NCBI GenBank assembly: GCA_963701125.1
Contig: OY969568.1
Span: forward strand, 2,895,504-2,959,503
Direction of reading: 5' to 3'
Length of the DNA: 64,000 nucleotides
Origin: an uncultured Actinomycetes bacterium
GTDB lineage: Bacteria; Actinomycetota; Thermoleophilia; Gaiellales; JAICJC01
Position 1 is the first letter of the stretch; every line of letters starts with the position of its first letter. This document shows, one piece after another, positions 17,703 through 35,378 of the stretch. A program made the translations under genes and the position numbers. The notes below the pieces were generated by a model, which worked only from the letters and a program-made list of their open reading frames with translations, made no database searches and had not been told where the DNA came from.

Positions 17703-17713
17703 GTCTCGCGCAT

Positions 17714-19213
17714 GTGCGTCCAGGAAACGTTACGGTCCTGCCGGTGAGCCCCGGCCCCGTGATCCTCGCAGTCGATCAGGGCAGCTCGAGCACGCGCTGC
17801 ATCGCCTACGACGTGCGCCTCGAGCCGGTGGCCTCGGCGGTGCGGCGGGTCGAGACATCCCGTCCCGGCCCCGGCATGGTCGAGCACGACCCCGAGGCGC
17901 TGCTCGCGGGCGCGCTCGAGGCGATCGCCGAGGCCCGCGTGGCGGCGGATGCCGAGGTGGCCGGCGTGGGCATCGCGAATCAGACCGAGACGTTCGTGCT
18001 GTGGGAGCGCGACGGCGGCGCGGCGGTGACGCCGCTTGTGAGCTGGCAGGACCAGCGCGCCGAGGAGCTGTGCCGCGCGCTCGCCGGCCGGCCGGGGGCC
18101 CAGCGCGTCGCGGCGGTCACGGGCCTTCCCCTCGACCCCACATTCTCGGCGCCGAAGCTCGCGTGGCTCTTCGGCCGCGACCCGGCGCTGCTCGCCCGCG
18201 CGGAGTCCGGCGAGCTGGCCTTCGGCGACGTCGCCTGCTGGCTTGCCTGGCACCTCTCGGGCGGCGGCGGGCACGTCAGCGAGCCGTCGAACGCCTGCCG
18301 GAGCCTCGTCCTGGACGTCGAGACGATGCGGTGGGACGCCGGCCTGCTCGACCTCTTCGGCGTGCCGGCGGCGCTCCTGCCCCTCGTCCGCGACTCGGAC
18401 GCCTCGGGCCTGCGCACGTCGGCGGCCACCGTTGGGTTCGACGCGCCGATCGCGGCGATGCTCGGCGACCAGCCCGCGGCGCTCTACGGCCAGGGCTGCA
18501 CGCGGCCGCGGATGGCGGCGCTGACCCTCGGCACCGGTGCGTTCGTGTGGCTGAACGCGGGCGCCGAGCGGCCCGATCCGCCCGAGGGCGTACTCGCCAC
18601 CGTCGCCTGGCAGACCGCCCGCGAGGGTCGCACCTATGCGCTCGAGGCGTTCGGCGCGAATGCCGGAAACGCATTGGGGGTTCTGCGCGCGAGCGGCATC
18701 GTCGCCGCCGGCTGGAGCTCGCGCGCGCCCGACTGGAACCGGCCGCACCCGGTCGTCGTCCCGGCGCCGGCCGGCCTCGGCACGCCTCACTGGCACGGAG
18801 CCGACCGCGTCACCGTGGTGAACGCGAGCAGCGCGACGACCGCCGACGACCTGGCCGCCGCGTGGCTCGCCGGTGTCGCCCACCAGATCGCCGATGCGCT
18901 CGAGGCGCAGGCGGCCTCGGGCGGCATCGACGCCCTGCGGGTCGGCGGCGGCCTGGCGGCCGACCGCGTCCTCCTGCAGGCGGTCGCCGACCTCTCGGGG
19001 CTCGTGCTCGAGGTCGCCCGCGATCTCGAGGCGACGGCCCGCGGCATCGCCGCGCTTGCGGCCGCCTCCGCCGGCGTCCTCGATCCCGGCGCCTCGGGGC
19101 ACGCGGTGGCGCACACGGTCGAGCCAAAGCTCGACGCCGCCGGCCGCGCCCGCGAGCGGGCGGCGTGGCGCGACGCCCTCGAGGTGCACGTGCGGCCGCA
19201 GGCACCCGGGTGA
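17714..19213 (+). CDS. glpK: glycerol kinase-like FGGY carbohydrate kinase
   Basis: ILAVDQGSSSTR ... GMVEHDPEAL N-terminal FGGY signature, about 490 aa. Alternative GTG start at 17744. GTGA overlap with glpD. Confidence 0.8.
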   Translation: MRPGNVTVLPVSPGPVILAVDQGSSSTRCIAYDVRLEPVASAVRRVETSRPGPGMVEHDPEALLAGALEAIAEARVAADAEVAGVGIANQTETFVLWERDGGAAVTPLVSWQDQRAEELCRALAGRPGAQRVAAVTGLPLDPTFSAPKLAWLFGRDPALLARAESGELAFGDVACWLAWHLSGGGGHVSEPSNACRSLVLDVETMRWDAGLLDLFGVPAALLPLVRDSDASGLRTSAATVGFDAPIAAMLGDQPAALYGQGCTRPRMAALTLGTGAFVWLNAGAERPDPPEGVLATVAWQTAREGRTYALEAFGANAGNALGVLRASGIVAAGWSSRAPDWNRPHPVVVPAPAGLGTPHWHGADRVTVVNASSATTADDLAAAWLAGVAHQIADALEAQAASGGIDALRVGGGLAADRVLLQAVADLSGLVLEVARDLEATARGIAALAAASAGVLDPGASGHAVAHTVEPKLDAAGRARERAAWRDALEVHVRPQAPG

Positions 19214-20819
19214 GCAGCGGTGTGCTCGGCCCGTCCGCGCGGGCGGAGGCGCTTCGGCGGATGCGCGGCGAGCGGTTCGACCTGCTCGTCGTGGGCGGCG
19301 GGATCACCGGTGTCGGCATCGCCCTGGACGCGGCCACCCGCGGCCTGCGGGTCGCGCTCGTCGAGGCGAACGACATCGCCTCGGGCACGTCCAGCCGCTC
19401 GAGCAAGCTGATCCACGGCGGCCTGCGCTATCTGGAGATGCTCGACTTCGGCCTCGTGCGCGAGGCGCTGCGCGAGCGGCGGCTGCTGCTCACCCGCCTG
19501 GCGCCGCATCTGGTGCGGCCCGTCCCGTTCCTGTTTCCGCTGCGCCACCGCGGCTGGGAGCGGCCGTACATGGGCGCCGGGCTGCTGCTCTACGACAGCA
19601 TGGGCGGCGCCCGCCACCTGCCTCGCGCGCGGCACCTGTCCAAGGCCGCGGCGCTGCGATCGGCGCCGGCGCTTCGACCGGACTCGCTCGTCGGCGCTGT
19701 GCGGTTCCACGACGCCCAGGAGGACGATGCCCGCTTCGCCGTCTACGTGGCGCGGACGGCCGCCGCCCACGGCGCTTCGATCGCCACCCGGGCCACGCTC
19801 ACCGCGTTCGTGCGCGACGAGGGCGGGCGCATCGCCGGCGCGGAGGTTCGCTGCGGCGAGGAGACGATCGCGGTGCGTGCCCGCCACACCGTGGCCGCCG
19901 TCGGCGTCGCCACCGACCGCGTGCTTGGGCTTGCGACCGGGCACGCCCACCACGAGCTGCGCCCGTCGAAGGGCATCCACCTGCTCGTCCCCAGGGACTG
20001 CATCCCGATGCGCACGGGCCTCTTCATGCGCACCGAGAAGAGCATCTTCCACGCGATCCCGTGGGGCGAGGATCACTGGCTGCTGGGCGACACCGACACC
20101 GAGTGGGACGGCGAGCCCGATGCCCCCGTGGCCAACCGCGCCGACATCGAGTACGTGCTCGGCAAGGTGAACAGCGTCCTTCGCAGCCCGGTGCGCGCCG
20201 ATCGGGTCTGCGGCGTCTATCGCCGGCCTGCGCCCGCTCGTCGCGGCCGCGGGCGCGGCCGCGACCACGCGGCTCTCGCGCGAGCACCGGCTGTTCGCAC
20301 CCGCGCCCGGCCTGACCGCGATCGCCGGCGGCAAGTACACCACCTACCGTGTGATGGCCCGCGATGCCGTCGACGCCGCCGCGCGCGACCTCGGCGGCGC
20401 GGTGCCCCCGTCGCGCACGCAGGACGTGCCGCTGCTCGGCGCCGGCGGCGACGGCGCCGAGGCGGAGCTCGCGGCGCTCGCCGCGGCGGAGCCCGAGCTC
20501 GCCCGCCCGCTCGCCGGCGCCGGACATCACGCCGCCGCCCGGGTCGTGCACGCGTGCACGCACGAGGGGGCGCTCGACCTCGACGACGTCCTCTCACGCC
20601 GCCTGCGCGTCTCGATCGAGGTGCCCGACCGCGGCCGCGCCGCCGCCGCCGCGGCCGCGCCGCTCGTCGCCCCGGTGCTCGGCTGGTCGGACGGTGCGCG
20701 CGGCCGACGAGGTCGCGCGCTACGTGCGTCTGCGCGATGCCGAGGCCGCGGCCGAGGCGGCTCCCGATGACACCACCGCGCGGGAGCGGTACCGTGCCGT
20801 GCTCGAAGGGAGCGCGTGA
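19210..20819 (+). pseudogene. glpD: glycerol-3-phosphate dehydrogenase GlpD, frame-disrupted (2 apparent +1 shifts near 20221 and 20692)
   Basis: FDLLVVGGGITGVGIALDAATRG ... SSRSSKLIHGGLRYLE in one frame. Continuation AGLRPLV...GGKYTTYRVMARDAVD in frame +1. C-terminus VRAADEVARYVRLRD...EGSA* in the next frame. Confidence 0.85.
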
Positions 20820-20895
20820 CGGCGAGCCTCGCAATCGACGGATTCGACCACCCGACCGTGCCGGTCGGCGCGTCGACCCGCGCCGGAGCGGCGGC

Positions 20896-21087
20896 GTGAG
20901 GCGGTTCTTCGCCTACATCCAGGCCAACCCGCTGGCCGTCTCGGCACCGTGCTTCCTGATCGTGATCGTGAACCTGACCCAGGGCGTGCGCAGCTGGTTC
21001 GGGCTCACGTTCGTGACGGTGTGGTTCGTGGGATCGCTCGCGTTCCACATCCGCCGCCGGCGCCGCGGCGGCCCCTGGTTCGTGTGA
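20896..21087 (+). CDS. small membrane protein (hypothetical)
   Basis: 63 aa from a GTG. Two hydrophobic spans (LAVSAPCFLIVIVNL, GLTFVTVWFVGSLAF). Weak evidence. Confidence 0.3.
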   Translation: MRRFFAYIQANPLAVSAPCFLIVIVNLTQGVRSWFGLTFVTVWFVGSLAFHIRRRRRGGPWFV

Positions 21088-21153
21088 TCAGCAGTCACCG
21101 ATCCGACACCGCTTCGTGACACGATCGCAACGGCCGGCTCCTATGCTGGTCTC

Positions 21154-21723
21154 ATGGATATCCCCACCAGGAGGCGGTCAATGTACGCGTTGCGAGGTCG
21201 ACGGGCCACGAGGCTCGCGGTGGTGCTTGTGGCGGTGGCCGGAGTCGGCGCCGCGGGAGCGGCGGCCGCACACGCGTCCGCGGCATCGGCGGCGAGCACG
21301 CCGCGCTGCCGGCTCAAGCAGTTGTCGCTCGCGGCCCCGAAGATGAACGGCGCCGCCGGCACCATCCGGCTGCGCTTCGTCTTCACCAACACCGGCGGCT
21401 CGACGTGCAAGCTCTTCGGTTTCCCCGGGATGCAGATGCTGAACAAGAACCACAACCCGATCCCGACGCACGTGCACCGAGGCACGGGCCACAACGTCCC
21501 GCCGGAGCCCGAGGCCGACGTCGTCATGACCCCCGGCCAGCATGGCTCCTTCTACGCCGGCTACTCCGACGTCCCCAACGGGAACGCGACGTGCCGGACA
21601 TCGGCGTTCGTCGAGGTGACGCCGCCGAACGACTTCAACCACTTCACTCAGAAGCTCGCGATCACGACGTGCGGCGGCAACATCACCGTCTCGCCCGTCG
21701 TGCACGGAAGGCTGCCGGTCTAG
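21154..21723 (+). CDS. secreted protein, DUF4232-like
   Basis: 189 aa. Signal peptide, then a C..(L)SL....NGAAGT....F.F.N.G...C.L.G.PG pattern typical of DUF4232-type proteins. From memory. Confidence 0.55.
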   Translation: MDIPTRRRSMYALRGRRATRLAVVLVAVAGVGAAGAAAAHASAASAASTPRCRLKQLSLAAPKMNGAAGTIRLRFVFTNTGGSTCKLFGFPGMQMLNKNHNPIPTHVHRGTGHNVPPEPEADVVMTPGQHGSFYAGYSDVPNGNATCRTSAFVEVTPPNDFNHFTQKLAITTCGGNITVSPVVHGRLPV

Positions 21724-21726
21724 AGG

Positions 21727-22912
21727 CTACGCCCGCGCGCCTGGCCCATAGGCCAGGCGCAGCAGGCGGCCCTGGGCGAAGCGCTCGGCGCGCAGGGGCG
21801 GACGTCGATCGGCGGCTGCCGGTCCGGTGACCTCGGCCGCAACCACCTCGCCGACGGCGGGCGAGAGCTTGAAGCCGTGCCCGCTCCAGCCGACGGCCAG
21901 GTAGAGGCCCTCGATCCCGGGGCACGGGCCGATGATCGGGTTCCAGTCGGGCGTGACGTCGTAGGGGCCGGCGAAGGCGCGTTCGATCGCGAAGTCGGCC
22001 AGGCGCGGGTAGCGCTCGCCGACCGAGCGGCGCGGACGACATCGGCGTAGCCCGGCGACGCGGCATGGTCGCAGTCGTCGGCGCGCGTCGAGCGGATCCT
22101 GGCCCCGCGTAGGCGACCGCGCAGAAGCGGCGGCCGCGGTCGGGGCGCACGACCACGTTCGAGACGGCGTCCGAGCAGACCGCCGAGGGCAGCGGCCCGC
22201 CGGGCTCGCGGCGGGCGACGAGCACCTGGAGCCGGCGCAGCTCGATCGGCTGCTCGGCGCCGAGCGGCTCGCAGCAGGTCGTTCGCCCACGCGCCGAGTC
22301 GCGAGCACGACCGGCCGGCCGCCGTGAACCGCGGTCGGTCTCGACGCCGGTGACCCGCCCGTCCTCGACCCGCAGCCCGCGACACCGTGCAGCCGAGCCT
22401 GTGCGCCAGGCCGCGCGACGGCGGCGGCGGCGAACCAGCCCAGGCACATCTTCTGCGCGTCGGCGAACCCGCCCTCGGGCTCGTACGCCGCGCCCGCGAC
22501 TCCGTCGAGCGACAGCTCCGGCTCGACCTCGCCGATCTCGCCCGGCGCCGAGGAAGCGCGTCTGCAGGCCGAGCTCCTGCAGCACGTGCGACGTTGTCGC
22601 GGCAGGCGGCCTCGAGCCGCTCGGGCACGGTCAGCAGGTAGCCGCAGCGGACGTAGCCGGCGTCGGCCACGCCGACCTCGTCCTCCCAGTTTGCGATCGT
22701 GCGCGTGCCCTCCATCGCCAGCCGTGCCGTGACGGCGTTGGAGTAGTGGCGCCGCACCATCGAGAACGAGCGGCCGGAGTCGACCGTCGCCCGGCGCGCT
22801 CGCGGTCGAACAGCGCCACGCCGCGCCTGGCCGTCGCGGTCAGAGGGCGTGGGCGGTGGCAAGGCCGGTGATACCGGCGCCGACGATTGCCGATGTCGGC
22901 GGCGCCGCTCAC
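21727..22912 (-). pseudogene. FAD-dependent oxidoreductase (DAO / sarcosine-oxidase-beta-like), heavily frame-disrupted (~14 shifts)
   Basis: Pieces across all three minus frames join into one protein: VSGAADI|AIVGAGITGLATAHAL|...GVALFDRERAG|...GRSFSMVRRHYSN...ACRDNV|LQELGLQTRFLG|GEIGEVEPEL...KMCLGWFAAAA|...|GLRVEDGRVTGVETDRG|...|PLGAEQPIEL...|...YPRLADFAIERAFAGPYDVTPDWNPIIG...WSGHGFKLSPAVGE. Confidence 0.75.
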
Positions 22913-22938
22913 GCGGCAACGCTACACCCTGCCCGCTC

Positions 22939-22968
22939 GGCCTGTCCCCGAGGGACAGCCCCGATTCT
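22939..22968. repeat. palindromic element copy 2 (CCTGTCCCCGAGGGACAGCCCCGATTCT)
   Basis: The TGTCCC-CGA-GGGACA inverted repeat plus the CCCCGATTCT tail matches the right half of copy 1 (9696-9716). Lies in the divergent region between the oxidoreductase and the BMC operon. Confidence 0.6.
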
Positions 22969-23007
22969 GGACCTCGACCCGGACCATTGTCCAAATAGTT
23001 GCGTTTT

Positions 23008-23032
23008 GGTCTGGTATTCGGTACGGTCTGAC
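23008..23032 (+). promoter_or_regulatory. candidate operator region: direct GGTCTG repeats / GGTCTGAC box in the AT-richer BMC control region
   Basis: TTTTGGTCTGGTATTCGGTACGGTCTGACAC read directly, 10 nt upstream of the ATG at 23042. GTCTGAC recurs at 32998-33004 and 35401-35407. The GGTCT half-site is reminiscent of HutC-type (DasR-like) boxes. Confidence 0.3.
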
Positions 23033-23041
23033 ACGACGCCC

Positions 23042-24337
23042 ATGTACGACTACGGCTTCTTCTCCTACGAGTCGAAGGACGACTTCCTCGACCGGTCGCG
23101 GGAGTTCTGGAACCCCGACAAGACCGACTTCTGGCAGGACGCCGGCGTCGACCTCGTCATCGATCGCCGCGAGGGCTACTTCTTCTGGGACATGGCCGGC
23201 CGCCGCCTGATCGACCTGCACCTGAACGGCGGCACCTACAACCTCGGCCACCGCAATCCCGAGCTGATCGCGACGATTGAGCAGGCGATGCAGCGCTTCG
23301 ACATCGGCAACCACCACTTCCCGGCGCTCGCGCGCACCGCGCTGGCCGAGGCGCTCGTGAAGACCTGCCCGCCCGAACATGCGCCGCGTCGATCTACGGC
23401 GCGGGCGGCGGCGAGGCGACCGACATCGCGATCAAGACCGCCCGCCACACCCGCCAGCGGCGCAAGATCGTCTCGATCCTGAAGGGCTACCACGGCCACA
23501 CCGGCCTCGCGGTCGCGTCCGGCGACGACCGCTTCTCGAAGCTCTTCCTGTCCGATCGTCCCGACGAGTTCGTCCAGGTGCCGTTCAACGACCTCGACGC
23601 GATGGAGGCGGCGCTGCGCGACGGCGACGTCGCGGCGGTGCTGCTCGAGACGATCCCGGCCACCTACGGCTTCCCGCTGCCGCTGCCCGGCTACCTGCAG
23701 GGCGTGAAGCGGCTCTGCGAGCGCTATCGGCGCCCTCTACATCGCCGACGAGGTGCAGACCGGCCTGATGCGCACGGGCGAGATGTGGGGCATCACCAAG
23801 GCCGGCGTCGAGCCCGACATCATGGTCATCGGCAAGGGCATCACCGGCGGCATGTACCCGATCTCGTGCGTCGTCGTGTCGGAGGAGTGCTCGGCCTGGC
23901 TCAAGGAGGACGGCTTCGGCCACATCTCGACCGGCGGCGGCGCCGAGCTCGGCTGCATCGTCGCGCTCAAGGTGCTCGAGATCTGCGGCAGGCCCGAGGT
24001 GCGCTCGATGGTGCACTACATCTCCGACCGCTTCGGGCGCGGGCTGCGCGCGATCCAGGAGCTCTACCCGGACTGGTTCGTCGGCATCCGCCAGGACGGC
24101 GTCGTCATGGGCCTCGAGTTCGACCATCCGCAGGGCGCGAAGGTCGTCATGAAGCACCTGTACGAGAACGGCGTGTGGGCGATCTTCTCGACGCTCGACC
24201 CGCGCGTGCTCCAGTTCAAGCCGGGCATCCTGCTCGGCCCCGAGCTCGTCGACGAGGTGCTCGACCGCACCGAGGTCTCGATCGGCCAGGCGCTGCACGA
24301 GCTGCGCGGCGACCGCCCCGCGGTGGGGGCGCGATGA
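23042..24337 (+). pseudogene. class-III aminotransferase-fold enzyme (RMM-type amino-alcohol-phosphate phospholyase candidate), frame-disrupted (~3 shifts: ~23375, ~23391, ~23728)
   Basis: MYDYGFFSYESKDDFLDRSREFW...HLNGGTYNLGHRNPE...|NMRRV|IYGAGGGEATDIAIKTAR...YHGHTG...LLETIPATYGFPLP..YL..V..LCERY|GALYIADEVQTGLMRTGEMWG...VIGKGITGG. GKG is the PLP-lysine region. Confidence 0.85.
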
Positions 24338-25844
24338 GCGCCGCGGCGCCCGAGCCGGCCGGCGTCCCGCGCGCGCGGATGATGCTCCAGCGCGCCCACT
24401 GGGCGGCGACGGCGTTCGCCGGCTACGACCACGAGCGCACGCATCGGATCGTCGATCGCCGTCGCCGAGGAGGCATACCAAAACGCCCAAAGGTATGCCG
24501 AGTGGGCGGTGCGCGAGACCGGCATGGGCATCGTCGACCACAAGCGGCGCAAGAACGAGGCCTGCTCGAAGGGCCTGCTCGAGTGGTACGGCGGCGGCGA
24601 CTACGTGAGCGCGCGTATCGATCCGGAGGCGCGCATCGTCGAGCTGCCGCGGCCCGCCGGCGTCGTGCTCGCCCTGACGCCTTCGACGAACCCGATCGCG
24701 ACCGTCTACTTCAAGGTGCTGCTGGCGCTGATGACCCGAAACGCGGTCGTCGTCAGCCCGCATCCGCTCGCCCGCGAGGTGTCGCGCCGACGCCGCTCAC
24801 CTGCTCGCCCGGGCGGCCGTCGAGGCCGGCGCGCCCGACGGCTGCGTGCAGGTGGTCGAGGAGCCGACGATCCCGCTGATCGAGGCGCTGATGAGCGACC
24901 CGACCACCGACGTCATCCTCGCCACCGGCGGCGTCGCGGTCGTGCGCGCCGCCTACCGCTCGGGCAACCCGGCGATCGGCGTCGGGCCCGGCAACGTGCC
25001 CTGCCTCGTCGACCACACCGCCGACCTGGCCGCCGCCGCGGAGCGGCTGATGGACTCGAAGAGCTTCGACAACTCGATCCTGTGCACGAACGAGTCGTGC
25101 GTCATCGTCGAGGAGCGCTGCGCCGACGCGTTCGAGCGCGAGCTCGGCCGCCACGGCGGCCATGTGCTCTCGCCGGACGACGTACCGACGGTGCGCGAGA
25201 AGCTCTACCCCGACGGACGGCTGCGGATCGAGCTGATCGGCAAGGACGGCCGGCGCTCGCCGCCGAAGCCGGGATCCGGGTTCCGCCGAAGACGCGCGTG
25301 CTCGTGGCGCCGTTCGCGCTCGTCGTGCCCGAGGAGCCGCTGGCGCGCGAGAAGATGTTCCCGCTGCTCGGGCTCGTGCGCGTGCCCGACGCGCGCCGCG
25401 GCATCGACGCCGCCTGCGCCATGCTGCGGATCGGCGGCGCCGGGTCACTCGGCCGTGATCCACTCCCGCGATCCGCGCACGATCATGGCCTACGGGGCCG
25501 CCGTGAAGGTGCTGCGGGTGGCGGTGAACGTCGGCGGGAGCACCGGCTCGGCCGGCATCGACACGAACCTCGCCCCGACGATGACGATCGGCACCGGGTT
25601 CTACGGCCGCTCGTCGCTGGGCGAGAACCTGGAGCCGCGCCACCTGATCAACCTGACCCGGGTGGCGTACACGAACGACCCGTCCGAGCCGTTCGGCGAC
25701 TTCACCGGCCTCGAGCCGTGGAGCCGCCGCGCCGAGCCGCCGAGCCCGTCGCGGCGCGGCGCCCTGTCCGCCGACGCCGCGGACGCGCGCGACGAGATCC
25801 GCCGGATCGTGCTCGAGGAGCTGCGGGAGCTGGTGAAGCGCTGA
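24334..25844 (+). pseudogene. CoA-acylating aldehyde dehydrogenase (EutE/PduP-like) with C-terminal encapsulation-peptide-like helix, frame-disrupted (~4 shifts: ~24457, ~24785, ~25248, ~25445)
   Basis: AVRETGMGIVDHKRRKNE ... LALTPSTNPIATVYFKVL ... ILATGG..VV.AAY.SG.PAIGVGPGN ... SFDNSILCTNES (catalytic Cys region) ... GGSTGSAGIDTNLAPTMTIGTG. Tail: PPSPSRRG linker followed by [21 protein letters not shown]. Confidence 0.85.
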
Positions 25845-26452
25845 TGGCAGAGCTCCGGTCATTCATCTTCATCGACCAGCTGCAGCCGCAGACCATGTGC
25901 TACCTGGGCACCTGGATCCGCGGCCGGCTGCCGCGCACGAACATGGCCGCGCAGATCATCGAGATCGCGCCCGGCCTCGACATCGAGCCGCTGACCGACG
26001 TGGCGCTCAAGTCGACCGAGGTGCAGGCCGGCATCCTGGTCGTCGAGCGCCAGTTCGGCTACCTCGAGATCCACTCGCGCTCGACCGCCGAGGTGCACGC
26101 GGCGAGCGCCGCCGTGCTGGCCGCGCTCGGCGCCACGGCCGAGGACGCCACCCGGCCGCAGATCCTGGCGTCGGAGATGATCACCCGAACCTCGACCACC
26201 AGCACGCGTTCCTGATCAACCGCAACAAGCTCGGGTCGATGGCGCTGCCCGGCGAGTCGCTCTTCGTGCTCGAGATGCAGCCGGCGTCCTACGCGATCCT
26301 GGCGACGAACGAGGCCGAGAAGGCCGCCAACATCAAGGTGGTCGACTACCGCATGATCGGCGCCACCGGCCGCGTCTACCTGACCGGCATGGAGGCCGAC
26401 GTGCGCACCGCCGGCGACGCCGCGGTCGGCGGCGCTGGGAGGGGCGGTATGA
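25844..26452 (+). pseudogene. tandem BMC-domain shell protein (BMC-T-like) paralogue 1, frame-disrupted (~2 shifts: ~26187, ~26425)
   Basis: Two BMC-like halves: [40 protein letters not shown] and [47 protein letters not shown] junction with the ALDH gene. Restoring the frame gives a TGA overlapping the next ATG. Paralogue of 27678-28336. Confidence 0.7.
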
Positions 26453-27097
26453 GCACGCCCGACGACGCCGAGCTGCTGCGCAGCGTCACCCGCGAGGTGC
26501 TGGCCGACCTGCTGCCGGAGCTCCTGTCCGAGGCGCTGACTGCCAACGTCAATGGCCACAATGCTGCGAATGGGGACAGTCCCCATCCGGGGGCTGTCCC
26601 CGCTTCTCTGCCGCCGTCGACGCCAGGTGCCATCCCCCAGGTGCCGGGGCCGCCGATCGCCGCCGTGCACCGGCCGTCGGGCTGGCGTCCGCCGGCCGAG
26701 TCGGACACGACGACGACGCCGCCCCCCGCGGCCGCGGCGGCCTCCTGCGGCCCCGGATGCGACGGTCGAGCGGGTCGACCTGCGCAGCGACGCCGACCTC
26801 GACGCCTTCGTGCGCTCGCTGGTGCGGCGGCTCGAGAACCCGCGCGACCGCATGGCGATCCGCTCGGGCAAGCTGCGCTTCCGGCTTGCGTGCGACCGCC
26901 GCGGGTACGACCGGCCGCGCCGTCTTCGGCGCCCGTCATGCGGGTCGAGCAGCGGCGCCGTCACCGAGCGCACCGTGCGCGATGCGGCCGCCTCGGGCGC
27001 GCGGCTCGTGCTGGCCCGGCGGGCGGTGCTGACGCCGATGGCGCGCGATCGCGCGCGCAGCCTGGGAGTCGAGATCGAGAAGGAGCGGCCATGCTGA
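26449..27097 (+). pseudogene. BMC-associated protein of unknown function with N-terminal encapsulation-peptide-like helix, frame-disrupted (~4 +1 shifts)
   Basis: [30 protein letters not shown] (amphipathic), then a ~60-aa Pro/Ala/Thr linker, then [44 protein letters not shown]|...|VMRVEQ|[44 protein letters not shown]. Confidence 0.5.
26572..26609. repeat. palindromic element copy 3 (GGGGACAGTCCCC-ATCC-GGGGGCTGTCCCC-GCTTCTCT), in-frame inside the linker of the 26449 gene
   Basis: Read directly. The arms are 12/13 complementary. Translated as [12 protein letters not shown] within the Pro-rich linker. Confidence 0.7.
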
Positions 27098-27384
27098 GAG
27101 CGACCGTCACCGGCGCCGTCTGGGCGACCAAGCGCGATCGAGAACATCCCCGGCGGCGCCTTCCTCGAGGTCGAGGTGGACGGCGGCGGCGGGCGTGTCG
27201 TCGCCTTCGACGTGCTCGGCAGCGGCATCGGCGAGCGCGTGCTGGTTGCAACCGGCTCGGTCGCAAGCGGCTGGTTCGGCGACGTGCACCCCCCATCGAC
27301 GCTCTGATCATCGGATCCATCGACGAGCCCGCCGCGGCCGCACCGGCCCCGGCGCAAGCGCCTCCGCCGCACGGCGGGGCATGA
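27091..27384 (+). pseudogene. BMC-P pentamer/vertex protein (EutN/CcmL family), internal segment out of frame (compensating +1 near 27136 and -1 near 27290)
   Basis: [15 protein letters not shown]|[51 protein letters not shown]|[12 protein letters not shown]. The first and last parts are in the frame of track ORF 25897..27384, the middle is in frame +1. Confidence 0.8.
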
Positions 27385-27399
27385 ACCAAGGAGAGACGC

Positions 27400-27677
<278 letters not shown>

Positions 27678-27678
<1 letters not shown>

Positions 27679-28336
27679 TGCCCGACACGTCGACCGATAT
27701 CGCGGTGCAGCTGCGGGTGTACCTGCCGATCCCGAGCCTGGGCCGGCAGTTCGCCGCGTACCTGGGCACGCCCACGCGTGCCCGCGGCTACCCGCCGATC
27801 GAGGGCGACCACGCGCTGATCGTCGAGGTGGCGCCGGCGCTCGCGATCGAGCGCGTCACCGACCTCGCGCTGCGATCGGTGCCCGAGATCGAGCCGGGCA
27901 TCCTCTACGTCGAGCGCCAGTTCGGCGTGCTCGAGGTGCACCACCGCGACAAGGCGCTGGTCGACCGGGCCGGCGCGGCGATCCTCGAGGGCATCGGCGC
28001 GAAGCCCGCGGACGCCGCTGCGGCCACGTATCCTCTACGCCGACGTGATCGAGGACATCACCGACCAGCACGCCGTGATCATCAACCGCAACCGCGAGGC
28101 GTCGATGGTGCTGCCGGGCGAGACGCTGCTCGTCTACGAGGTGGTGCCGGCGCTGCTTCGCCGCCGTCGCGGCGAACGCCGCCGAGCGGGCGGCGCCCGA
28201 CGCCACGCTCGTCGACGGTCGTCGATGATCGGCGCGGCGGGGCGGATCTACATGAGCGGCGCCGACCGAGAGCGTCGTGCGGGCCCGCGACGAGATCACC
28301 GAGGTGCTCGCGTCGGTGGAGGGCCGTGAGCACTGA
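27678..28336 (+). pseudogene. tandem BMC-domain shell protein (BMC-T-like) paralogue 2, frame-disrupted (~4 shifts)
   Basis: LIVEVAPALAIERVTDLALRSVPEIEPGILYVERQFGVLEVH|LRPRILYADVIEDITDQHAVIINRNREASMVLPGETLLVYEVVPALL|AAVAANAAERAAPDATLVD..|MIGAAGRIYMSGAD|ESVVRARDEITEVLASVEGREH*. TAGTG junction with the BMC-H gene. Confidence 0.7.
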
Positions 28337-29318
28337 TCAGGCGGGCGATCGACCGCCTGGCCGCCGCGGCGCTCCGAAGCTACGCGCTCGACCCCGGCCG
28401 CCGGCGTTCGCCTGATCAACGTGTCCGAGAACTGGACGTACCGCGTCGAGGAGCCCGGGTGGGCGCGCGTTCGCGCTGCGGGTGCACCGCCCGACCTACC
28501 ACACCGCCGCCGAGATCGCGTCCGAGCTCGACTGGATCGACGCGCTGCGCGAGGACGGCGTCGTCGAGACGGCGATTGCCGTCGAAGGCACCGCCGGCTC
28601 GCGGGTGTGCCAGGTCGCGCACCGACGAGCTGGGCGAGCGAAACGTCGTGCTCTTCGACTGGCTCGACGGCGACATGCCCGACGCCGATGCCCACGACCT
28701 GATGCCCGGATTCCGCACGCTCGGCGCCGTGTCGGCGCGCATGCACGGACACGCCCGCGCATGGACACCGCCGCCGGGCTTCGCGCGCTTCCGCTGGGAC
28801 TACGCGACGACGCTCGGCGCTGAGGGCCACTGGGGCCGGTGGCAGGACGGCCTGGGCATGGGCGCCGCGGAGCTCGACGCTGCTCGGACGCCTCGACGAC
28901 ACGCTGCGGCGGCGCCTCGAGGCCTACGGCCAGGGCCGCGAGCGGTTCGGGCTCGTGCATGCCGACATCCGGCTCGCCAACCTGCTCGTCGTCGGGCGAG
29001 CACGTGCGCGTGATCGACTTCGACGACTGCGGCTGGTCGTGGTTCATGTACGACTTCGCGACGACCGTGTCGTTCATCGAGGACCACCCCGACGTGCCGC
29101 GGCTGAAGGCGGCCTGGGTGGACGGCTACCGGTCGGTGGCGGAGCTCGATCCCGCCGACGAGGCCGAGCTCGACTCGTTCGTGATGCTGCGCCGGCTGCT
29201 GCTCGTCGCCTGGATCGGCTCGCACCACCAGTTCGCGACCGAGGCAGCCGAGCTCGGCGCCGGGTTCACGGAGGGCACGTGCGCGCTGGCCGAGGCGTAC
29301 CTGTCCGAGTACGCCTGA
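28326..29318 (+). pseudogene. aminoglycoside-phosphotransferase-fold kinase (RMM-type amino-alcohol kinase candidate), frame-disrupted (6 consecutive +1 shifts)
   Basis: VSTDQA|IDRLAAAALRSYALD|PAAGVRLINVSENWTYRVEEPG|RAFALRVHRPTYHTAAEIASELDWIDAL...|DELGERNVVLFDWLDG...FRWDY...|[35 protein letters not shown]|[22 protein letters not shown]... HxD...N and IDFDD are kinase catalytic motifs. Confidence 0.8.
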
Positions 29319-29323
29319 GGCGG

Positions 29324-29686
29324 CTACTTGATGTTGACGACGAGCTGCAGGAGGCCGGCGTGGGGCACGTGGATCACCCGCGGAACCGGCTGGATCGACC
29401 GCATGTTCGCCTGCGGGCCGCCGGACGTGATCATCACGCGGTATATCCCCGGTGGGACGTCGAACGCAAAGCGTCCGTTCGGACCGGTGCGCACCGTGGC
29501 CGACTCGTCCGTGCCTTTGAAGCGCAGGTGGACGCCGCCGAGTACAACGCCCCCGCCTGGCAGCGGGCCGCCCAGACGCACGAGTTGTCCGTGCGTTCGG
29601 GAGAGGTGGGGCGCCGATCCGCCGCCGCAGCCGGACACGACGAGCGCGACGAGCAGCGCAGCTGCACGCAACCAATTCACGTCCAT
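29324..29686 (-). CDS. lipoprotein with carboxypeptidase-regulatory-like beta-sandwich
   Basis: 120 aa. Lipobox [24 protein letters not shown] motif, typical of CarboxypepD_reg-like domains. Antisense to the surrounding BMC genes. Confidence 0.6.
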
Positions 29687-29740
29687 TGGACCGTAGAATG
29701 GGCCGCCCGGTTCCCGCCGGCAGCCACGCACGAGGAGGAG

Positions 29741-30526
29741 ATGATGTTCACCCCACTCACCGGTCGCACCGTTCTCGTCACCGGCGGCACCAAGGGCATC
29801 GGCAAGGGCATCGCCGGTGAGTTCGCGGCGGCGGGCTGCAACGTGGCCCTGAACGGCCGCGGCGGGGACGCCGGCGAGGTCGCCGTGCGCGATCTCTCCG
29901 CCCGCGGCGGCAAGGTGTCGTTCGTGAAGGGCGACGTCGCCAGGGCCGAGGACTGCGAGCGGATCGCGGCCGAGGTGGCATCGCGCTACGGCGGCATCGA
30001 CATCGTGTGCGCGAACGCCGGCGTCTTCCCCGACGTGAAGCTCGCCGACATGACCGAGGACGACATCGACTCGATCTTCGCGACGAACGTGAAGGGCACG
30101 ATGCTGACCGTCAAGGCATGCCTGCCCTACCTGGAGGCGTCCGGCCACGGCCGCGTGATCCTGACGAGCTCGATCACCGGGCCCATCACCGGCTTTCCGG
30201 GCTGGTCGCACTACGGCGCGACCAAGGCGGCGCAGCTCGGCTTCCTGCGCACCGCCTGCATCGAGCTCGCTCCGAAGCGGATCACGGTCAACGCGGTGCT
30301 GCCGGGGAACGTCGAGTCCGAGGGCATGGACGAGCTCGGCCCCGAATATCGGGCGTCGATGGAAGCCTCGATCCCGCTCGGCCGGCTCGGCTATCCGTCG
30401 GAGATCGGCGCGGCGGCGGTGTTCCTCGCGACCGACGAGGCGGGGTACATCACCGGCCAGACGATCGTCGTCGACGGCGGCCAGGTGCAGCCGGAGTCGG
30501 TGGCTGCGCTGCAGGCGGCGCAGTAG
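29741..30526 (+). CDS. short-chain dehydrogenase/reductase (candidate aminoacetone / 1-amino-2-propanol dehydrogenase)
   Basis: 261 aa. TGGTKGIG cofactor motif, NAG, catalytic S...YGATK. Intact. Its position matches the SDR of RMM loci. Confidence 0.9.
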
Positions 30527-30540
30527 AGGCGAGCGGCGCC

Positions 30541-31338
30541 GTGACCGAGCCTGTCCCCGGCCTGCCGGCCGCGTTCGCGCCCCTCGGGCCGTCCGCGTCG
30601 GCGCTGCGCGACCGGCTGCTCGCGACGATCGCGGGCGGCGAGCCCGGCCCGGGCGAGCGTCTCGGCGCCGAGCGCGAACTGGCCGCCCGGCTCGGGGTGA
30701 GTCGATCGACACTGCGTTCGGCGCTCGACGCGCTCGAGACGGCAGGCATCGTTCGGCGCGTGCGCGGACGCTCGGGCGGCATCTTCGTCTCGGAGCGGCG
30801 GGTCGAGCGCGACCTGACGAGCCTCACCGGCCTGCCGGCATATCTGCGCCGCCAGGGCTTCCAGTCGGGCGCGCGCGTGCTCTCGACGGCCACGGTGGGG
30901 GCCGACGCCGAGACGGCCGCCGCGCTCGGCGTGCCGGAGGGCTCGCTCGTGCTCGAGGTCGTGCGCGTGCGCCTCGCAGACGAGCAGCCGATCTCGCTCG
31001 AGCGGGCGCGCTTTCCCGCCGACCGCTTCCCCGGCCTGCTCGACCAGTCGCTCGCCGGATCGCTGTATGACCTGCTCGAGAGCGGCTACGGCCTGCGTCC
31101 GAGCGAGGCCGAGGAGCGGGTCGAGGTGGTCGGCGCCACGGCGGCCGAGGCGCGCGTGCTCGAGGTGCGCGCCGGCGACCCGCTGGTCGCGATCGTCCGC
31201 ACGGCGTGGTCGGAGGACGGGCGCGCATTCGAGCGCTCGCACGACCTCTTCCGGGCCGACCGCGTCCGCATCGTCACGCGCGTGCGCACGCGCGACCCCT
31301 CGGCGCTCGGAAACTCGGTCGAGGTGGTCGGGGTCTAG
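30541..31338 (+). CDS. GntR family transcriptional regulator, HutC subfamily (wHTH + UTRA)
   Basis: ERLGAERELAARLGVSRSTLRSALDALETAGIVRRVRGRSGGIFV wHTH. C-terminal UTRA-like region. Intact. Confidence 0.9.
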   Translation: MTEPVPGLPAAFAPLGPSASALRDRLLATIAGGEPGPGERLGAERELAARLGVSRSTLRSALDALETAGIVRRVRGRSGGIFVSERRVERDLTSLTGLPAYLRRQGFQSGARVLSTATVGADAETAAALGVPEGSLVLEVVRVRLADEQPISLERARFPADRFPGLLDQSLAGSLYDLLESGYGLRPSEAEERVEVVGATAAEARVLEVRAGDPLVAIVRTAWSEDGRAFERSHDLFRADRVRIVTRVRTRDPSALGNSVEVVGV

Positions 31339-31340
31339 GT

Positions 31341-31377
31341 GCGTGCATAAAACGGGCCTGGCCCGTTTTATGCACGC
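31341..31377. terminator. bidirectional intrinsic terminator (17-bp perfect stem, CTG loop)
   Basis: GCGTGCATAAAACGGGC-CTG-GCCCGTTTTATGCACGC, read and base-paired by hand, 3 nt after the GntR stop. T-runs follow the GC core on both strands. Confidence 0.8.
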
Positions 31378-31537
31378 GGACGCCTAGTCGGGCCGCGTGC
31401 GCTGCCAGGCGCCGTTCGCCCGCGAGACGCAGCACGAGCCGCCGACGCGGCAGATCGCCCGGTCGAGCGCGCGCAGCAGGCGGATGACGGTCGCCACAGC
31501 CAAACCGTAGCCCAGGTGCCATACTCTCGCGAAGCCG

Positions 31538-32491
31538 ATGGCCGAGCACCTGATCACGCGCGACGCCCCCACCCACCGCCGCTGGGACGTGGACATCGAG
31601 CCGGTGGTGCGCATCCGGTCGGGCGACACGGTCACCGCCGAGACCGACGACTTCGCCGGCGGCCAGGTCACGCGCGACTCGACCGCCGCAGACCTGCCCG
31701 ACCTGGACTTCGGCATGATCTACCCGCTGGCCGGGCCGATCCACGTCGAGGGCGCCGAGCCGGGCGACGCCTGGCGATCGAGTTCCTCGAGTTCGAGCTG
31801 CCGGAGTGGGGGTGGGCATGCATCATCCCGGGGTTCGGCCTGCTGCCCGCCGGGCGAGTTCACCGAGCCGTACATCAAGTTCTTCGACCTGACCGGCGGC
31901 AGCACGATGGCGTTCGCGCCGGGCGTGCGGCTGCCGATCGAGCCGTTCTGCGGCACGACCGGGGTGCCGGGCGCAGGGATGCACGGCGTGCCGATCCCGC
32001 CGCCGCACGCCGGCGGCGGCAACATCGACCTGCGCCATCTCACCAGGGGCACGACGCTCTACCTGCCGGTCGGAGTCCCCGGCGCGCTGGTCTCGCTCGG
32101 CGACGCCCACGCAGCCCAGGGCGACGGCGAGGTGGCGATCTCCGGCGTCGAGTGCGCCATGCGCACGACGATGCGCATCTCGGTCGCGCGGGGCATGCAC
32201 CTGCGCGCCCCCGCGCTTCGGCGGCCTGCCGGCTCGCTCACGCCGCGGGTCGACGGCGGCGGCTGGTTCGCGACGACCGGCGTCGAGCCCGATCTGATGG
32301 AGGCGGCCCGCTCGGCGGTGCGCGCGATGATCGAGCATCTCGTCGCCGAGCGCGGTCTTTCACGTGACGACGCGTACATGTTCTGCTCCCTCGCGGGCGA
32401 TCTGAAGATCACCGAGGTCGTGGATGCGCCAAACTGGATCGTCGGCTGCTTCATGCCCGACGCGGTGTTCACCGACGAGGAGGACGGCTGA
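31538..32491 (+). CDS. acetamidase/formamidase family amidohydrolase; ORF open, but ~28 internal codons appear out of frame (compensating -1 near 31768 and +1 near 31852)
   Basis: 317 aa. FmdA/AmdA-like motifs (GPI.V.GAEPGD ... GGN.D ... LGDAHAAQGDGEV). The segment read as WRSSSSSSSCRSGGGHASSRGSACCPP reads as LAIEFLEFELPEWGWACIIPGFGLLPA in the neighbouring frame. Confidence 0.8.
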   Translation: MAEHLITRDAPTHRRWDVDIEPVVRIRSGDTVTAETDDFAGGQVTRDSTAADLPDLDFGMIYPLAGPIHVEGAEPGDAWRSSSSSSSCRSGGGHASSRGSACCPPGEFTEPYIKFFDLTGGSTMAFAPGVRLPIEPFCGTTGVPGAGMHGVPIPPPHAGGGNIDLRHLTRGTTLYLPVGVPGALVSLGDAHAAQGDGEVAISGVECAMRTTMRISVARGMHLRAPALRRPAGSLTPRVDGGGWFATTGVEPDLMEAARSAVRAMIEHLVAERGLSRDDAYMFCSLAGDLKITEVVDAPNWIVGCFMPDAVFTDEEDG

Positions 32492-32938
32492 TGCACGAGC
32501 TTCAGATGCGCGAGTCCCTTGAGCGGCTGGCAGAGACCGACGGCGGCAGGCGGCTGCTGCAGCTCTCGCTGCGCAGCATCGAGGCCGGCGACCACGACCT
32601 GGTGTCGGGCTGCTGGACGCGCAAGGGCGACGCGGGCTGCCTGTTCCAGCACGCCTACTGGCAGGGCGTCGCCGACGGCGTCTTCGCCGACGACGGCCGC
32701 GCCCGCGACTGGGTGAGCGGCGTCGCCGGGCCGCAGGCCTTCCACCGCGTGATCGACGTGATCGCGGCGTTCGACCGGCTCGCCCGGGCCGAGTATGCGG
32801 TCGGCAAGCGCCGGTTCGGGCCGCCCGAGCTCGATCAGGCAGCGCTGGCGCGAGCACGTCGCGGCGCTGCTGGTCGAGGTGCTCGGCGGCAGCGGCGACC
32901 GCGCGGCGGTCGGCGCGGTGCCTGCGTTGACGGCGTAG
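32491..32938 (+). pseudogene. hypothetical protein, probable +1 shift near 32843
   Basis: TGATG junction with the amidase gene. MHELQMRESLERLAETDGG...AFDRLARAEYAVGKRRFGPPELDQAA, then the plausible continuation WREHVAALLVEVLGGSGDRAAVGAVPALTA* in the next frame. No family recognised. Confidence 0.4.
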
Positions 32939-32996
32939 ATCGCTCCCAGGGCTTGACCTGGCCGCGCCGTAAATGGTACAAACGGCGCGAGCAACC

Positions 32997-33005
32997 TGTC
33001 TGACA
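32997..33005. promoter_or_regulatory. palindrome TGTCTGACA upstream of the permease gene (candidate operator)
   Basis: Perfect 9-nt palindrome. Followed at 33021-33032 by TGTC-CCGA-GACA. A TTGACC ... TGGTACAAA promoter-like pair lies at ~32953-32982. Confidence 0.3.
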
Positions 33006-33051
33006 ACTTCGGGATCCAATCTGTCCCGAGACACCTGAGGGAGGTGGTCGA

Positions 33052-34638
33052 ATGAGCAGTGAAGGCGGCGGCATGCACGAGCATCACGAGGGCATGCTTC
33101 CCGTGGTCGATAGCGTCGATGTCTCGACTCGCACAGACGTGCACAAGCTGCACGGCGGCGCTGTGGGCCTTTGGGGGGTGCTGTTCCTCACGGTCACGGG
33201 GTCCGCCCCGATCTCGGCGATGCTCTTCAACACCCCCATCTCGATGGGATACGGGAACGGCATCGGCACGCCTGCGGGCTTCCTCGTCGCCACGGTCGTT
33301 CTCACGATCTTCTCGGTCGGGTACGTCGCCATGTCACGCAAGGTGACCGCCGCCGGCGGCTTCTACAGCTTCATCAGCCACGGCCTCGGGCGCGAGCTGG
33401 GAATGGCGTCCGGCCTTGCCATGGTGGCCGCATACTCCGTGTTCGAGGTATCGCTGGTCGGCGGCTTCTCGTACTTCGCGACGTTGAAGCTGGCCCAGTA
33501 CGGCTATCACGTGTCCTGGTACTGGCCCGGCCTCTTCATGATCGGGCTGATCTCGGTGCTCGCCTTCTTCGACGTGCACATCTCGGCCCGCGCCCTCGGC
33601 ATCGCGCTGATCGGCGAGATCATCCTGCTGGTGATCTTCGACGCGGTCGTGTTCGGCCATGGCGGCAGCAACATCCAGGCCGGCGCGATCAACCCGATCA
33701 ACGCGTTCAAGGGCCTCGGCGCGAGCGGTCACGGAGGCTCGGCGGTCGCCGCCGGCGCAGCCGGGATCGGCATCTTCTTCGCCTTCTGGTCGTGGGTCGG
33801 CTTCGAGATGGCCCCGAACTACGGCGAGGAGTCGAAGAACCCCAAGAAGATCGTGCCACGGGCCATGTACATCTCCGTGATCGGCCTGGGGATCTTCTAC
33901 ACGATCACCTCTTGGGCGGCGATCTCCGGGTATGCCAGCACCGCCGCGGCGGCGCACATCGCCCAGACCGACGGGGCCGACTTCTTCTTCATTCCCGCCA
34001 GGCAGTTCGGGAACGAGTTCCTGAAGGACGCCCTGAGCTACTTCATCATCACCGGGTCGTTCGCCTGCGGCATGGCGTTCCACAACACGACCGCGCGCTA
34101 CTTCTACTCGCTGGGACGCGAGGGCGTGCTGCCGCGATCGCTGGGGCGGACGCACGAGCGGCACCGCAGCCCGCACATCGCGTCGATCACCCAGTCGGTG
34201 ATCGCCGTCCTGATCGTGGTCGCCTTCGTGGCCTTCGCCCATGTGGCGAAGGGCTCGAACGCCGCCAACGACGTCGCCTACCTGCAGGTGTACGGACTGA
34301 TGGCGGTGATGGGAGTGGTCTCGATCCTGGCGATTCAGGCTCTCGTCTCGATCGCGATCCTGAACTACTTCCGGACGCACCACGCCGCCGACCACCACTG
34401 GTGGACGACGCTCACTGCGCCGATCATCGCTGCGGTGACGCAGCTGTATGTGCTCTACCTGGCGATCGACAACCTCAGCTTCCTCGGTGCCGGCTACTCG
34501 TACGCCAAGTGGCTCGTGTGGGGAGACGTGGTCATCTTCGCCGGCGGCTCGGTCTACGCCTTCTATCTGAAGTCAAGCAACCGGGCCAAGTACGAGACCA
34601 TCGGCCGCATGATCAACGAAGGTCTCGACCACGCCTGA
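33052..34638 (+). CDS. APC-superfamily amino acid/amine permease
   Basis: 528 aa, about 12-13 TM, GSAPIS..., F.SW.GFE motifs. Intact. A permease is a standard RMM-locus component. Confidence 0.9.
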   Translation: MSSEGGGMHEHHEGMLPVVDSVDVSTRTDVHKLHGGAVGLWGVLFLTVTGSAPISAMLFNTPISMGYGNGIGTPAGFLVATVVLTIFSVGYVAMSRKVTAAGGFYSFISHGLGRELGMASGLAMVAAYSVFEVSLVGGFSYFATLKLAQYGYHVSWYWPGLFMIGLISVLAFFDVHISARALGIALIGEIILLVIFDAVVFGHGGSNIQAGAINPINAFKGLGASGHGGSAVAAGAAGIGIFFAFWSWVGFEMAPNYGEESKNPKKIVPRAMYISVIGLGIFYTITSWAAISGYASTAAAAHIAQTDGADFFFIPARQFGNEFLKDALSYFIITGSFACGMAFHNTTARYFYSLGREGVLPRSLGRTHERHRSPHIASITQSVIAVLIVVAFVAFAHVAKGSNAANDVAYLQVYGLMAVMGVVSILAIQALVSIAILNYFRTHHAADHHWWTTLTAPIIAAVTQLYVLYLAIDNLSFLGAGYSYAKWLVWGDVVIFAGGSVYAFYLKSSNRAKYETIGRMINEGLDHA

Positions 34639-34677
34639 GCGGTAACCGCCACGCGGCGGTGGTGCGGGGCCTCGGCC

Positions 34678-35350: not shown

Positions 35351-35363
35351 CACACCCTCCAAA

Positions 35364-35378
35364 AGTTGTAGGACAACT
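35364..35378. promoter_or_regulatory. inverted repeat AGTTGT-AGG-ACAACT (candidate GntR-type operator) in a divergent promoter region
   Basis: Read directly. Followed by the TATGAT -10-like hexamer (35382-35387) and a GGTCTGAC box (35400-35407). Lies between the starts at 35350 (-) and 35429 (+). Confidence 0.35.

Follow-up and report, generated by a model that had tools for sequence, protein, structure and literature searches.

For carboxysomes, the way in which cargo is fastened to the shell of the microcompartment has been established; for the Pdu and Eut compartments, it was worked out as late as 2022-2025. To our knowledge, nothing is known about this fastening in the RMM/AAUM (aminoacetone / 1-amino-2-propanol) compartment of mycobacteria and other actinomycetes. 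Here, the subject is a gene in a stretch of 64,000 nucleotides from an uncultured Actinomycetes bacterium (contig OY969568.1); that whole stretch is called the window below. The gene, called X, lies on the forward strand at 26449-27097, inside an operon of the RMM/AAUM type. On balance, it probably encodes a non-enzymatic structural assembly factor, a linker between the shell and the cargo of this compartment. This reading is preferred because a C-terminal module of the protein, called domain B, is homologous to the shell-associating H1/H2 part of EutQ and probably also to the C-terminal ends of PduM and the TIGR02536 proteins, and because the protein has a PduM-like N-terminal signal and its gene lies upstream of a pentamer gene.

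In the Salmonella Eut system, the N-terminal 99 residues of EutQ are necessary and sufficient for targeting (PMC12487888). A EutQ that lacks residues 9-41 (H1/H2) stays with the cargo aggregate, off the shells, and a EutQ that lacks residues 62-99 (H3/H4) stays with the shells (PMC12487888). H3/H4 binds the encapsulation peptides of EutC and EutE, and the N-terminus of EutQ bridges shell and cargo (PMC12487888).

PduM carries a core-targeting N-terminal signal sequence, and its loss leads to a partial separation of core and shell (PMC12108088; PMC9132943). Residues 1-23 are the signal sequence, and are sufficient to bring green fluorescent protein to the core (PMC12108088). The protein has a role in normal shell-core association and in the shape of the compartment (PMC9132943, PMC12108088), and has been stated to be without homologues outside Pdu (PMC12108088). 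Its gene lies between pduL and pduN, overlapping pduL by 4 nt and standing 4 nt from pduN.

The carboxysome linker proteins CcmN and CsoS2 embody the same concept, a protein that links cargo to shell by means of disordered regions and short peptide motifs. Neither, however, has sequence similarity to X. A hexapeptide-repeat domain is present in CcmN, and CsoS2 is a large protein built mostly of repeats, whereas the modules of X are single-copy.

Domain B and its relatives

Gene X is interrupted by frameshifts in the window, and its features are given here for the corrected protein.

26449..27097, forward strand: gene X (RMM/AAUM linker-like protein), ~216 aa after four +1 corrections, stop included; from three-frame translation and tblastn with intact homologues.
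26461..26544, forward strand: N-terminal amphipathic helix, encapsulation-peptide-like; helix at residues 4-32 of the homologue P0001 in its AlphaFold2 (AF2) model, pLDDT 85-96.
26545..26758, forward strand: linker 1, Pro/Ala-rich, predicted disordered; pLDDT 52-69; frameshift 1 near 26745-26758.
26632..26703, forward strand: conserved short linear motif in linker 1, P.[VI]P.PP[VI]A.[VI].RP[SA].W.
26759..26887, forward strand: domain A, β-α-α-β, ~45 residues; AF2 pLDDT 91-97; family-conserved.
26888..26931, forward strand: linker 2, (G)ATAAGTT..AAPSSA, short and variable; frameshifts 2 and 3 near 26888-26891 and 26912-26913.
26932..27094, forward strand: domain B, β-α-β-α-β, ~50 residues; AF2 pLDDT 96-98; frameshift 4 at ~26953.

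Alignments of 28, 71 and 139 members of the X family were used, and the AF2 models are those of two homologues, P0001 (218 aa, 79% identical to corrected X; mean pLDDT 80, pTM 0.38) and the compact P0197 (142 aa; pLDDT 88, pTM 0.46). To judge by the low pTM (0.38-0.46), the modules are not confidently packed together.

A first-pass annotation of this DNA had described an N-terminal amphipathic helix, a P/A/T linker of about 60 residues, and a C-terminal domain with a motif and two segments said to be related. The helix stands (pLDDT 85-96 in the homologue), and the C-terminal motif is present and almost invariant in the family. The linker is closer to 72 residues than to 60, and holds a conserved motif of its own. 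The two segments, our domains A and B, are unrelated. Their comparison by hhalign gives a probability of 0.07%, on which an internal duplication was rejected, and their predicted topologies differ (β-α-α-β versus β-α-β-α-β).

The only residues that are invariant in the family lie in domain B, being the G and E of GAVTE and the T-P of the LTP helix cap; they look structural. When X is compared with 18,950 NCBIfam models, the top matches are all microcompartment proteins, and all are made through domain B. The strongest match in the library is TIGR02536 ('eut_hyp'), a model of hypothetical proteins from ethanolamine-utilisation loci, whose positions 161-206 of 207 are matched by 52 of 71 X members at E<=1 (best E 5.7e-6). 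Full-length X matches the EutQ model NF012001 at profile positions 4-46 of 233, and matches the PduM model at positions ~106-153.

These matches were examined further with retrieved sequences of E. coli K-12 eutQ and of PduM. Positions 11-52 of domain B align with EutQ 4-47 (hhalign probability 91.9%, E 6.8e-7, 42 columns, 36% identity), and domain B aligns with PduM 131-162 (probability 62-79%, E 1.6e-5 to 7.7e-5, 32 columns). The pattern common to domain B and these relatives is (V/I)T..x(V/I)R.A...G...(L/V)VL.r..(V/I)(L/I)T(P/A).AR..A..lg(V/I).I.kE. The match to the C-terminus of PduM suggests a shared module, not membership in the PduM family.

The likeness to EutQ lies in the correspondence of domain B to the shell-associating H1/H2 region (EutQ 4-47). 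Further, in both proteins the module is accompanied by a flexible spacer rich in Pro/Ala and by a helical, amphipathic element concerned with encapsulation peptides. There are also differences. EutQ carries the module at its N-terminus, X at its C-terminus, and X has no cupin/acetate-kinase domain (no match to PF06249 or another cupin among 71 X members). A counterpart to H3/H4 was not detected in X; the comparison with domain B spanned EutQ 1-61, with the match ending at 47, and full-length X matched NF012001 at 4-46 only. Nor does eutQ adjoin eutN in EUT1 operons.

The likeness to PduM takes in several features. Both proteins are small and non-enzymatic, and each has at its N-terminus an amphipathic helix of the signal or encapsulation kind. 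The PduM C-terminal module, ...VLxRxxVxT(A/P)(L/M)ARDxA..(I/V)x(L/I)xK(Q/E)E, can be aligned to domain B at an hhalign E of 1.6e-5; the conserved PduM segment that was compared reads ...LVLxRKCIVTALAREAAxxRNIQLIKQE. Each gene is directly 5' of a BMC-P gene and start/stop-coupled to it, an adjacency seen for X in 80/80 loci. Unlike PduM, however, X has a 70-residue Pro/Ala linker, a conserved linker motif and domain A; the corresponding part of PduM is a compact body of ~100 residues that is unrelated to them. X also falls under the cut-offs of all three PduM hidden Markov models (PF15953, 12.1 bits vs 27; TIGR04493, 14.4 vs 50; NF011957, 12.7 vs 179), the last being matched at E<=1 by 4 of 71 X members. 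X occurs in RMM loci of Actinomycetota and PduM in Pdu loci, and the role of X is a predicted one.

TIGR02536 proteins resemble X in that the module is C-terminal in both, the last ~45 model positions being those matched by the 52 of 71 X members. The match is confined to this module (positions ~161-206 of 207), with scores of ~13-20 bits against a cut-off of 152.6. The comparison was made via the model only, and TIGR02536 is itself uncharacterised. The X family is unannotated, falls short of membership in PduM, EutQ and TIGR02536, and has its own architecture; a microcompartment linker with an encapsulation peptide is, of course, a known kind of protein.

Other searches gave little. No Pfam or NCBIfam model reached threshold in scans of the corrected protein and 71 family members. 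Scattered weak matches to IF-2, Phage_lysis, PB1 and E3_binding were set aside as noise or as a likeness common to α/β proteins in general. Rv1546, the sole match by sequence profile in the PDB, was rejected at E 1.8. Foldseek searches of the PDB with the two AF2 models returned nothing at E<=1e-3, and the best local resemblances, to IF2/eIF5B domain III (a β-α-β-α-β piece of ~50 columns) and to Rossmann-like oxidoreductases, were judged to be generic and supersecondary. Taken over Pfam, NCBIfam, the PDB sequence profile and Foldseek, no enzyme family, enzyme fold or solved relative was found for X.

The peptide, the linkers and the locus

The second line of evidence comes from the N-terminus. 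The helix, with the family consensus LRxLVREVLRExLP, is kept family-wide, and its hydrophobic moment has a median of 0.52, against 0.41 in shuffled controls. It aligns with the C-terminal encapsulation peptide of the aldehyde dehydrogenase (ALDH) from the same locus (hhalign 70%, E 4e-5), and in register with residues 3-17 of the PduM signal sequence (E 0.0065), the latter a short match of low probability. An encapsulation peptide is here taken as a terminal amphipathic α-helix of ~18 residues, joined by a poorly conserved flexible linker to a folded part and found in a bacterial microcompartment (BMC) context only. In X, a confident helix precedes a linker of low pLDDT, the helix is kept and the linker varies, and the 80 loci retrieved are all BMC loci. 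We assign the helix of X to the class of the ALDH C-terminal peptide, its likely partner or class-mate.

In the locus itself, the ALDH peptide has the consensus (L)REEIRRxVxEELRELV and follows a Pro/Ala spacer in 11/11 diverse loci (at 9340-9396 in the related locus L001). In the same 11/11 loci, the signature enzyme, which is aminotransferase-like, bears no extension at either terminus. This enzyme is reportedly the phospholyase (Mallette & Kimber 2018).

Linker 1 is ~72 residues long, consists to 69% of P/A/T/G/S, and varies widely in length across the family. Its motif, VPxVPAPPVAAV(L/H)RPS(T/G)W in Thermoleophilia, is single-copy and restricted to that clade, occurring in 115 of 120 close homologues and in 24 of 150 representatives of 50% clusters. 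Many Solirubrobacterales add ...PGEVIGD to it, and another clade has PPTS(V/D)P in its place. Domain A has no match in Pfam, NCBIfam or the PDB. Tandem repeats that bind cargo or shell, of the CsoS2/CcmM type, were not found in X, where domains A and B are unrelated and the linker motif is present once.

The family is well populated. Corrected X has 990 homologous proteins at E<=1e-3, well above chance; among the best 120 of these, query coverage is 100% and lengths run from 198 to 232 aa. A profile search of 1.84 billion representatives at 50% identity gave 693 clusters, and 405 of these reached E<=1e-10. Homologues occur in 421 GTDB species (one genome scanned per species), and the best 80 of these species are all Actinomycetota (Gaiellales, Solirubrobacterales, Streptosporangiaceae and the isolate Nocardioides sp. 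BYT-33-1). Wherever the source gives a name to a homologue, that name is "hypothetical protein." A tblastn search of plasmids with X gave no match.

Gene order was followed in 80 retrieved loci, with three further look-ups of context. All 80 are BMC loci, and all 80, like the three look-ups, have the order aminotransferase, ALDH, BMC-T, X, BMC-P, BMC-H, BMC-T, APH kinase, SDR, GntR, with genes missing only at the ends of contigs. X was found in its slot in every locus examined, and no cytosolic family matched it. X is the least conserved of the operon set, at 42-81% identity, against 64-100% for its neighbours in the same loci. Those nearest to it in the window are:

25791..25841, forward strand: C-terminal encapsulation peptide of the ALDH, from the translation of the open reading frame (ORF) 24846..25844.
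25844..26452, forward strand: BMC-T1, trimer type with a double BMC domain, upstream neighbour of X; frameshifted in the window; from tblastn with the L001 BMC-T (PF27545+PF00936).
27091..27387, forward strand: BMC-P, EutN/CcmL pentamer, downstream neighbour of X; frameshifted in the window.

The first-pass annotation had placed X between BMC-T1 and BMC-P, start/stop-coupled to both, and this is the arrangement seen. Once the frame of BMC-T1 is corrected, the ATG of X at 26449 overlaps the BMC-T1 TGA (26450-26452) as ATGA; the X stop at 27095-27097 gives a 7-nt overlap with the BMC-P start at 27091. Intact relatives show identical overlaps on both sides, with BMC-T1 ending ...AALGGAV* and its TGA overlapping the X start. 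The protein itself ends in Pro-Cys-stop (CCATGCTGA, 27086-27097), almost invariant in Gaiellales and in many Solirubrobacterales. This piece of DNA includes the ATG-CTG start of the overlapping BMC-P, and because that start lies inside it, the conserved terminal Cys may mirror the overlap of genes rather than a function of X.

The locus is of the RMM/AAUM type. The window holds, in order, a class-III aminotransferase-like enzyme, ALDH, one BMC-H, one BMC-P, two BMC-T(dp), an APH-family kinase, SDR, GntR and an amino-acid permease, and Pfam assignment finds the same set in relatives. This composition agrees with the type described in PMC4207490 and in the supplement of PMC8217296. A table in PMC8217296 assigns msmeg_0271 and 0275 to BMC-T, 0272 to BMC-H, 0273 to BMC-P, 0276 to ALDH and 0277 to aminotransferase, and has no entry for msmeg_0274, which by its number falls between msmeg_0273 (BMC-P) and msmeg_0275 (BMC-T).

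Two further items in the locus may be recorded. Between the APH kinase and SDR genes, at 29324-29700 (L001 12832-13185), lies a small reverse-strand gene with a CarboxypepD_reg-like domain, set in an otherwise co-directional operon and kept in the closest relatives. Between GntR and the permease, at 31538-32940 (L001 15975-17377), lie an FmdA_AmdA (formamidase/acetamidase) gene and a gene for a 150-aa protein without a Pfam match. Both are kept in related Gaiellales loci, and may be ancillary to the pathway.

Linker, accessory cargo or cargo scaffold

The first-pass annotation had called X a lumen-targeted scaffold or accessory factor of unknown function, and not a nameable enzyme. Its lumen-targeted, non-enzymatic character is borne out by a helix that is family-wide and aligns with the ALDH peptide, and by the absence of any enzyme match. 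"Unknown function" can be narrowed, through the homology of domain B to EutQ H1/H2 and its probable homology to the C-terminal parts of PduM and the TIGR02536 proteins.

If X is a shell-cargo linker, its modules can be assigned as follows; the gene with its architecture, conservation, synteny and remote homology is shown by the data above, and we infer the binding partners of the two ends, the polarity and the role of domain A. The N-terminal helix, as an encapsulation peptide of the ALDH class, would seat X in the cargo core (compare the experiments with PduM 1-23). The long, disordered Pro/Ala linker would supply reach. Domain B would dock onto the inner face of the shell, as deletion analysis showed for the homologous H1/H2 of EutQ. 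Domain A and the linker motif would offer additional, lineage-specific binding surfaces, for which the phospholyase, having no encapsulation peptide of its own, is a candidate client. The translational coupling of X to BMC-T and BMC-P would fix its stoichiometry at a low level.

A wider form of this proposal is more tentative, and is to be held as possible only. Here, domain B would be a new pan-metabolosome module of ~45 residues for docking to the shell, present at the N-terminus of EutQ (EUT1), the C-terminus of PduM (PDU), the C-terminus of TIGR02536 (EUT2) and in X (RMM/AAUM). X would then be the single organiser of the RMM compartment; its encapsulation peptide would join the network of ALDH peptides, domain A or the linker motif would recruit the phospholyase, and domain B would fasten core to shell. 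In both PDU and RMM, the gene for the domain-B protein lies directly beside the pentamer gene.

Several points weigh against the linker. Shell binding by domain B would be an analogy with its relatives. The homology is limited to ~32-45 residues and lies under every curated family threshold, and the EutQ profile behind it is shallow (5 sequences). The direct profile comparison of PduM with EutQ is not significant, though it falls in the same register; because these two do not match directly, their link is transitive through X, and the X family stands as a bridging intermediate. Once PduB 1-37 was missing, PduM itself co-localised with the cargo and not with the shell (PMC9132943). AF2 leaves the modules unpacked in both homologues (pTM 0.38-0.46). 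MSMEG_0274 of the model organism M. smegmatis is a putative member of the family, placed there by its position. Last, the X of the window is frameshifted, and possibly non-functional in its source organism.

A different view is that X is an encapsulated accessory cargo. The N-terminal peptide would then do no more than deliver the protein to the lumen, and domains A and B would have a non-structural task, to chaperone or regulate the phospholyase or the ALDH, or to aid the recycling of CoA or NAD+. An encapsulation-like helix followed by a linker is, of course, typical of cargo, and domain A has no known relatives. In addition, RMM loci lack the PTAC and the alcohol dehydrogenase for cofactor recycling (PMC4207490), and because these are lacking, a function remains to be filled there. 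However, the folded modules of X are small, at ~45-50 residues apiece, neither matches an enzyme fold, and the conserved positions look structural. The sole homology that can be detected is to parts of EutQ, PduM and TIGR02536 that relate to assembly, not to catalytic domains. Accessory cargo is for these reasons rather unlikely.

A scaffold that joins cargo to cargo fares no better, and we regard it as improbable. Here, domain B would be a helix-loop-helix resembling the peripheral subunit-binding domain (PSBD), gripping an oligomer of ALDH or phospholyase, and the helix at the N-terminus of X would form a bundle with the peptide of the ALDH, to nucleate the core in the manner of CcmM or EutQ H3/H4. 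The segment xTPxARxxAxxLGVxI does resemble the PSBD signature, the phospholyase has no encapsulation peptide, and PduM remains with the cargo once the coupling of shell to core is broken (PMC9132943). The matches to PF02817 (E3_binding), however, are few (4 of 71 X members, best E 0.016), all fall far under the gathering threshold, and the match to EutQ H1/H2 is much stronger. The EutQ region that is matched associates with the shell and does not bind cargo (PMC12487888), and X lacks internal repeats that would give multivalency.

Broken reading frames and the standing of the family

A problem with the frame of X had been pointed out in the first-pass annotation. A correction is indeed needed, and the extent of the damage had been understated, there being four shifts in X and breaks in neighbouring genes. 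In the window, X is not a single ORF; +1 changes near 26745, 26888, 26912 and 26953 take it through frames 1>2>0>1>2. Its segments are:

26449 to ~26745, forward strand: frame 1, N-terminal helix and linker.
26759-26887, forward strand: frame 2, domain A.
26892-26912, forward strand: frame 0, reads ATAAGTT.
26914-26952, forward strand: frame 1, 13 residues.
26954-27094, forward strand: frame 2, starts GAVTERTV and runs to the stop.

The stretch that holds 26449-27097 has a G+C content of 72-76%, and frame plots of G+C at third codon positions (GC3) support coding on the forward strand, the GC3 signal switching frame within 26449-27097. Alignment of the DNA to loci L001 and L002 shows that two of the four shifts are single bases inserted in the window, with conserved flanking sequence. 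Another superfluous base lies near 26424 and brings the final ~13 codons of BMC-T1 into the frame of X; because of it, the raw window has an ORF, 25897..27384, in which the BMC-T1 tail is fused in frame with X. Very long ORFs at 26059-27660 (reverse strand, 533 aa) and 17644-21087 (forward strand, 1147 aa) lie antisense to or across real genes, and are artefacts, poor in stop codons, typical of a genome with ~73% G+C.

When the operon (23042-29315, 6.3 kb) is probed with the proteins of a related intact locus, two shifts are found in the aminotransferase, at least two in the ALDH, two in BMC-T1, four in X, two in BMC-P, two in BMC-T2 and several in APH, for a total of ~15 or more. BMC-H, SDR, GntR, the formamidase-like FmdA, the permease and an FGGY kinase are unbroken. 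The density of shifts looks higher in the microcompartment operon than in its surroundings.

The most likely reading is nevertheless that the frameshifts in X are errors of sequencing or assembly. The closest relatives are long-read metagenome-assembled genomes (MAGs) from soil, at ~88% DNA identity, belonging to Gaiellales or uncultured Actinomycetes and carrying labels of the form "MFD... contig_NNNN"; split genes are present in some of these as well. Breaks occur outside the operon as well, within 19200-35400 of the window, affecting a DAO-family gene and two genes for hypothetical proteins. Counts of gaps that are not multiples of three in blastn alignments are only weakly informative on assembly error, as intact loci at 88% identity also show many paired gaps. 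Corrected X is 79% identical to the intact, 218-aa P0001 by BLASTP, and 89% identical by MAFFT after the correction was refined; its intact counterparts in Gaiellales MAGs, to which the identity is 79-89%, are 200-230 aa long.

The alternative is that X and much of the operon are a decaying pseudogene in this genome; X would then be functionless in this organism, regardless of what other members of the family do. For decay speak the number of shifts and of broken genes in so short an operon, single-base insertions in X that lie outside long homopolymers, and the survival of SDR, GntR, BMC-H, FmdA and the permease intact amid the broken genes. This is decidedly unlikely, given that unrelated genes beyond the operon are frameshifted too, that the nearest relatives are long-read MAGs with split genes of their own, that out-of-frame translations of the X family exist in public databases, and that, its shifts aside, the protein is strongly conserved (79-89% identity) without in-frame stops or decay.

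These public translations deserve attention in their own right. The public protein P0150 has an out-of-frame middle section of X between correct ends, and P0131 is chimeric, joining BMC-H to the C-terminal half of X. Frameshifted long-read assemblies have placed mistranslated versions of the X family in public protein sets. The lesson for annotation is that this family merits a model and a name, being frequently mistranslated in error-prone long-read MAGs.

If X is a linker, a single small gene, with its peptide and its 50-residue module, would be a handle by which the assembly of the RMM compartment could be dissected and engineered. A route for packaging an enzyme that has no encapsulation peptide would also be explained. 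Further, it suggests that PduM shares a conserved docking module with EutQ, the TIGR02536 proteins and the X family. Such a module, common to several families of microcompartment proteins, would be a useful and testable unifying idea.

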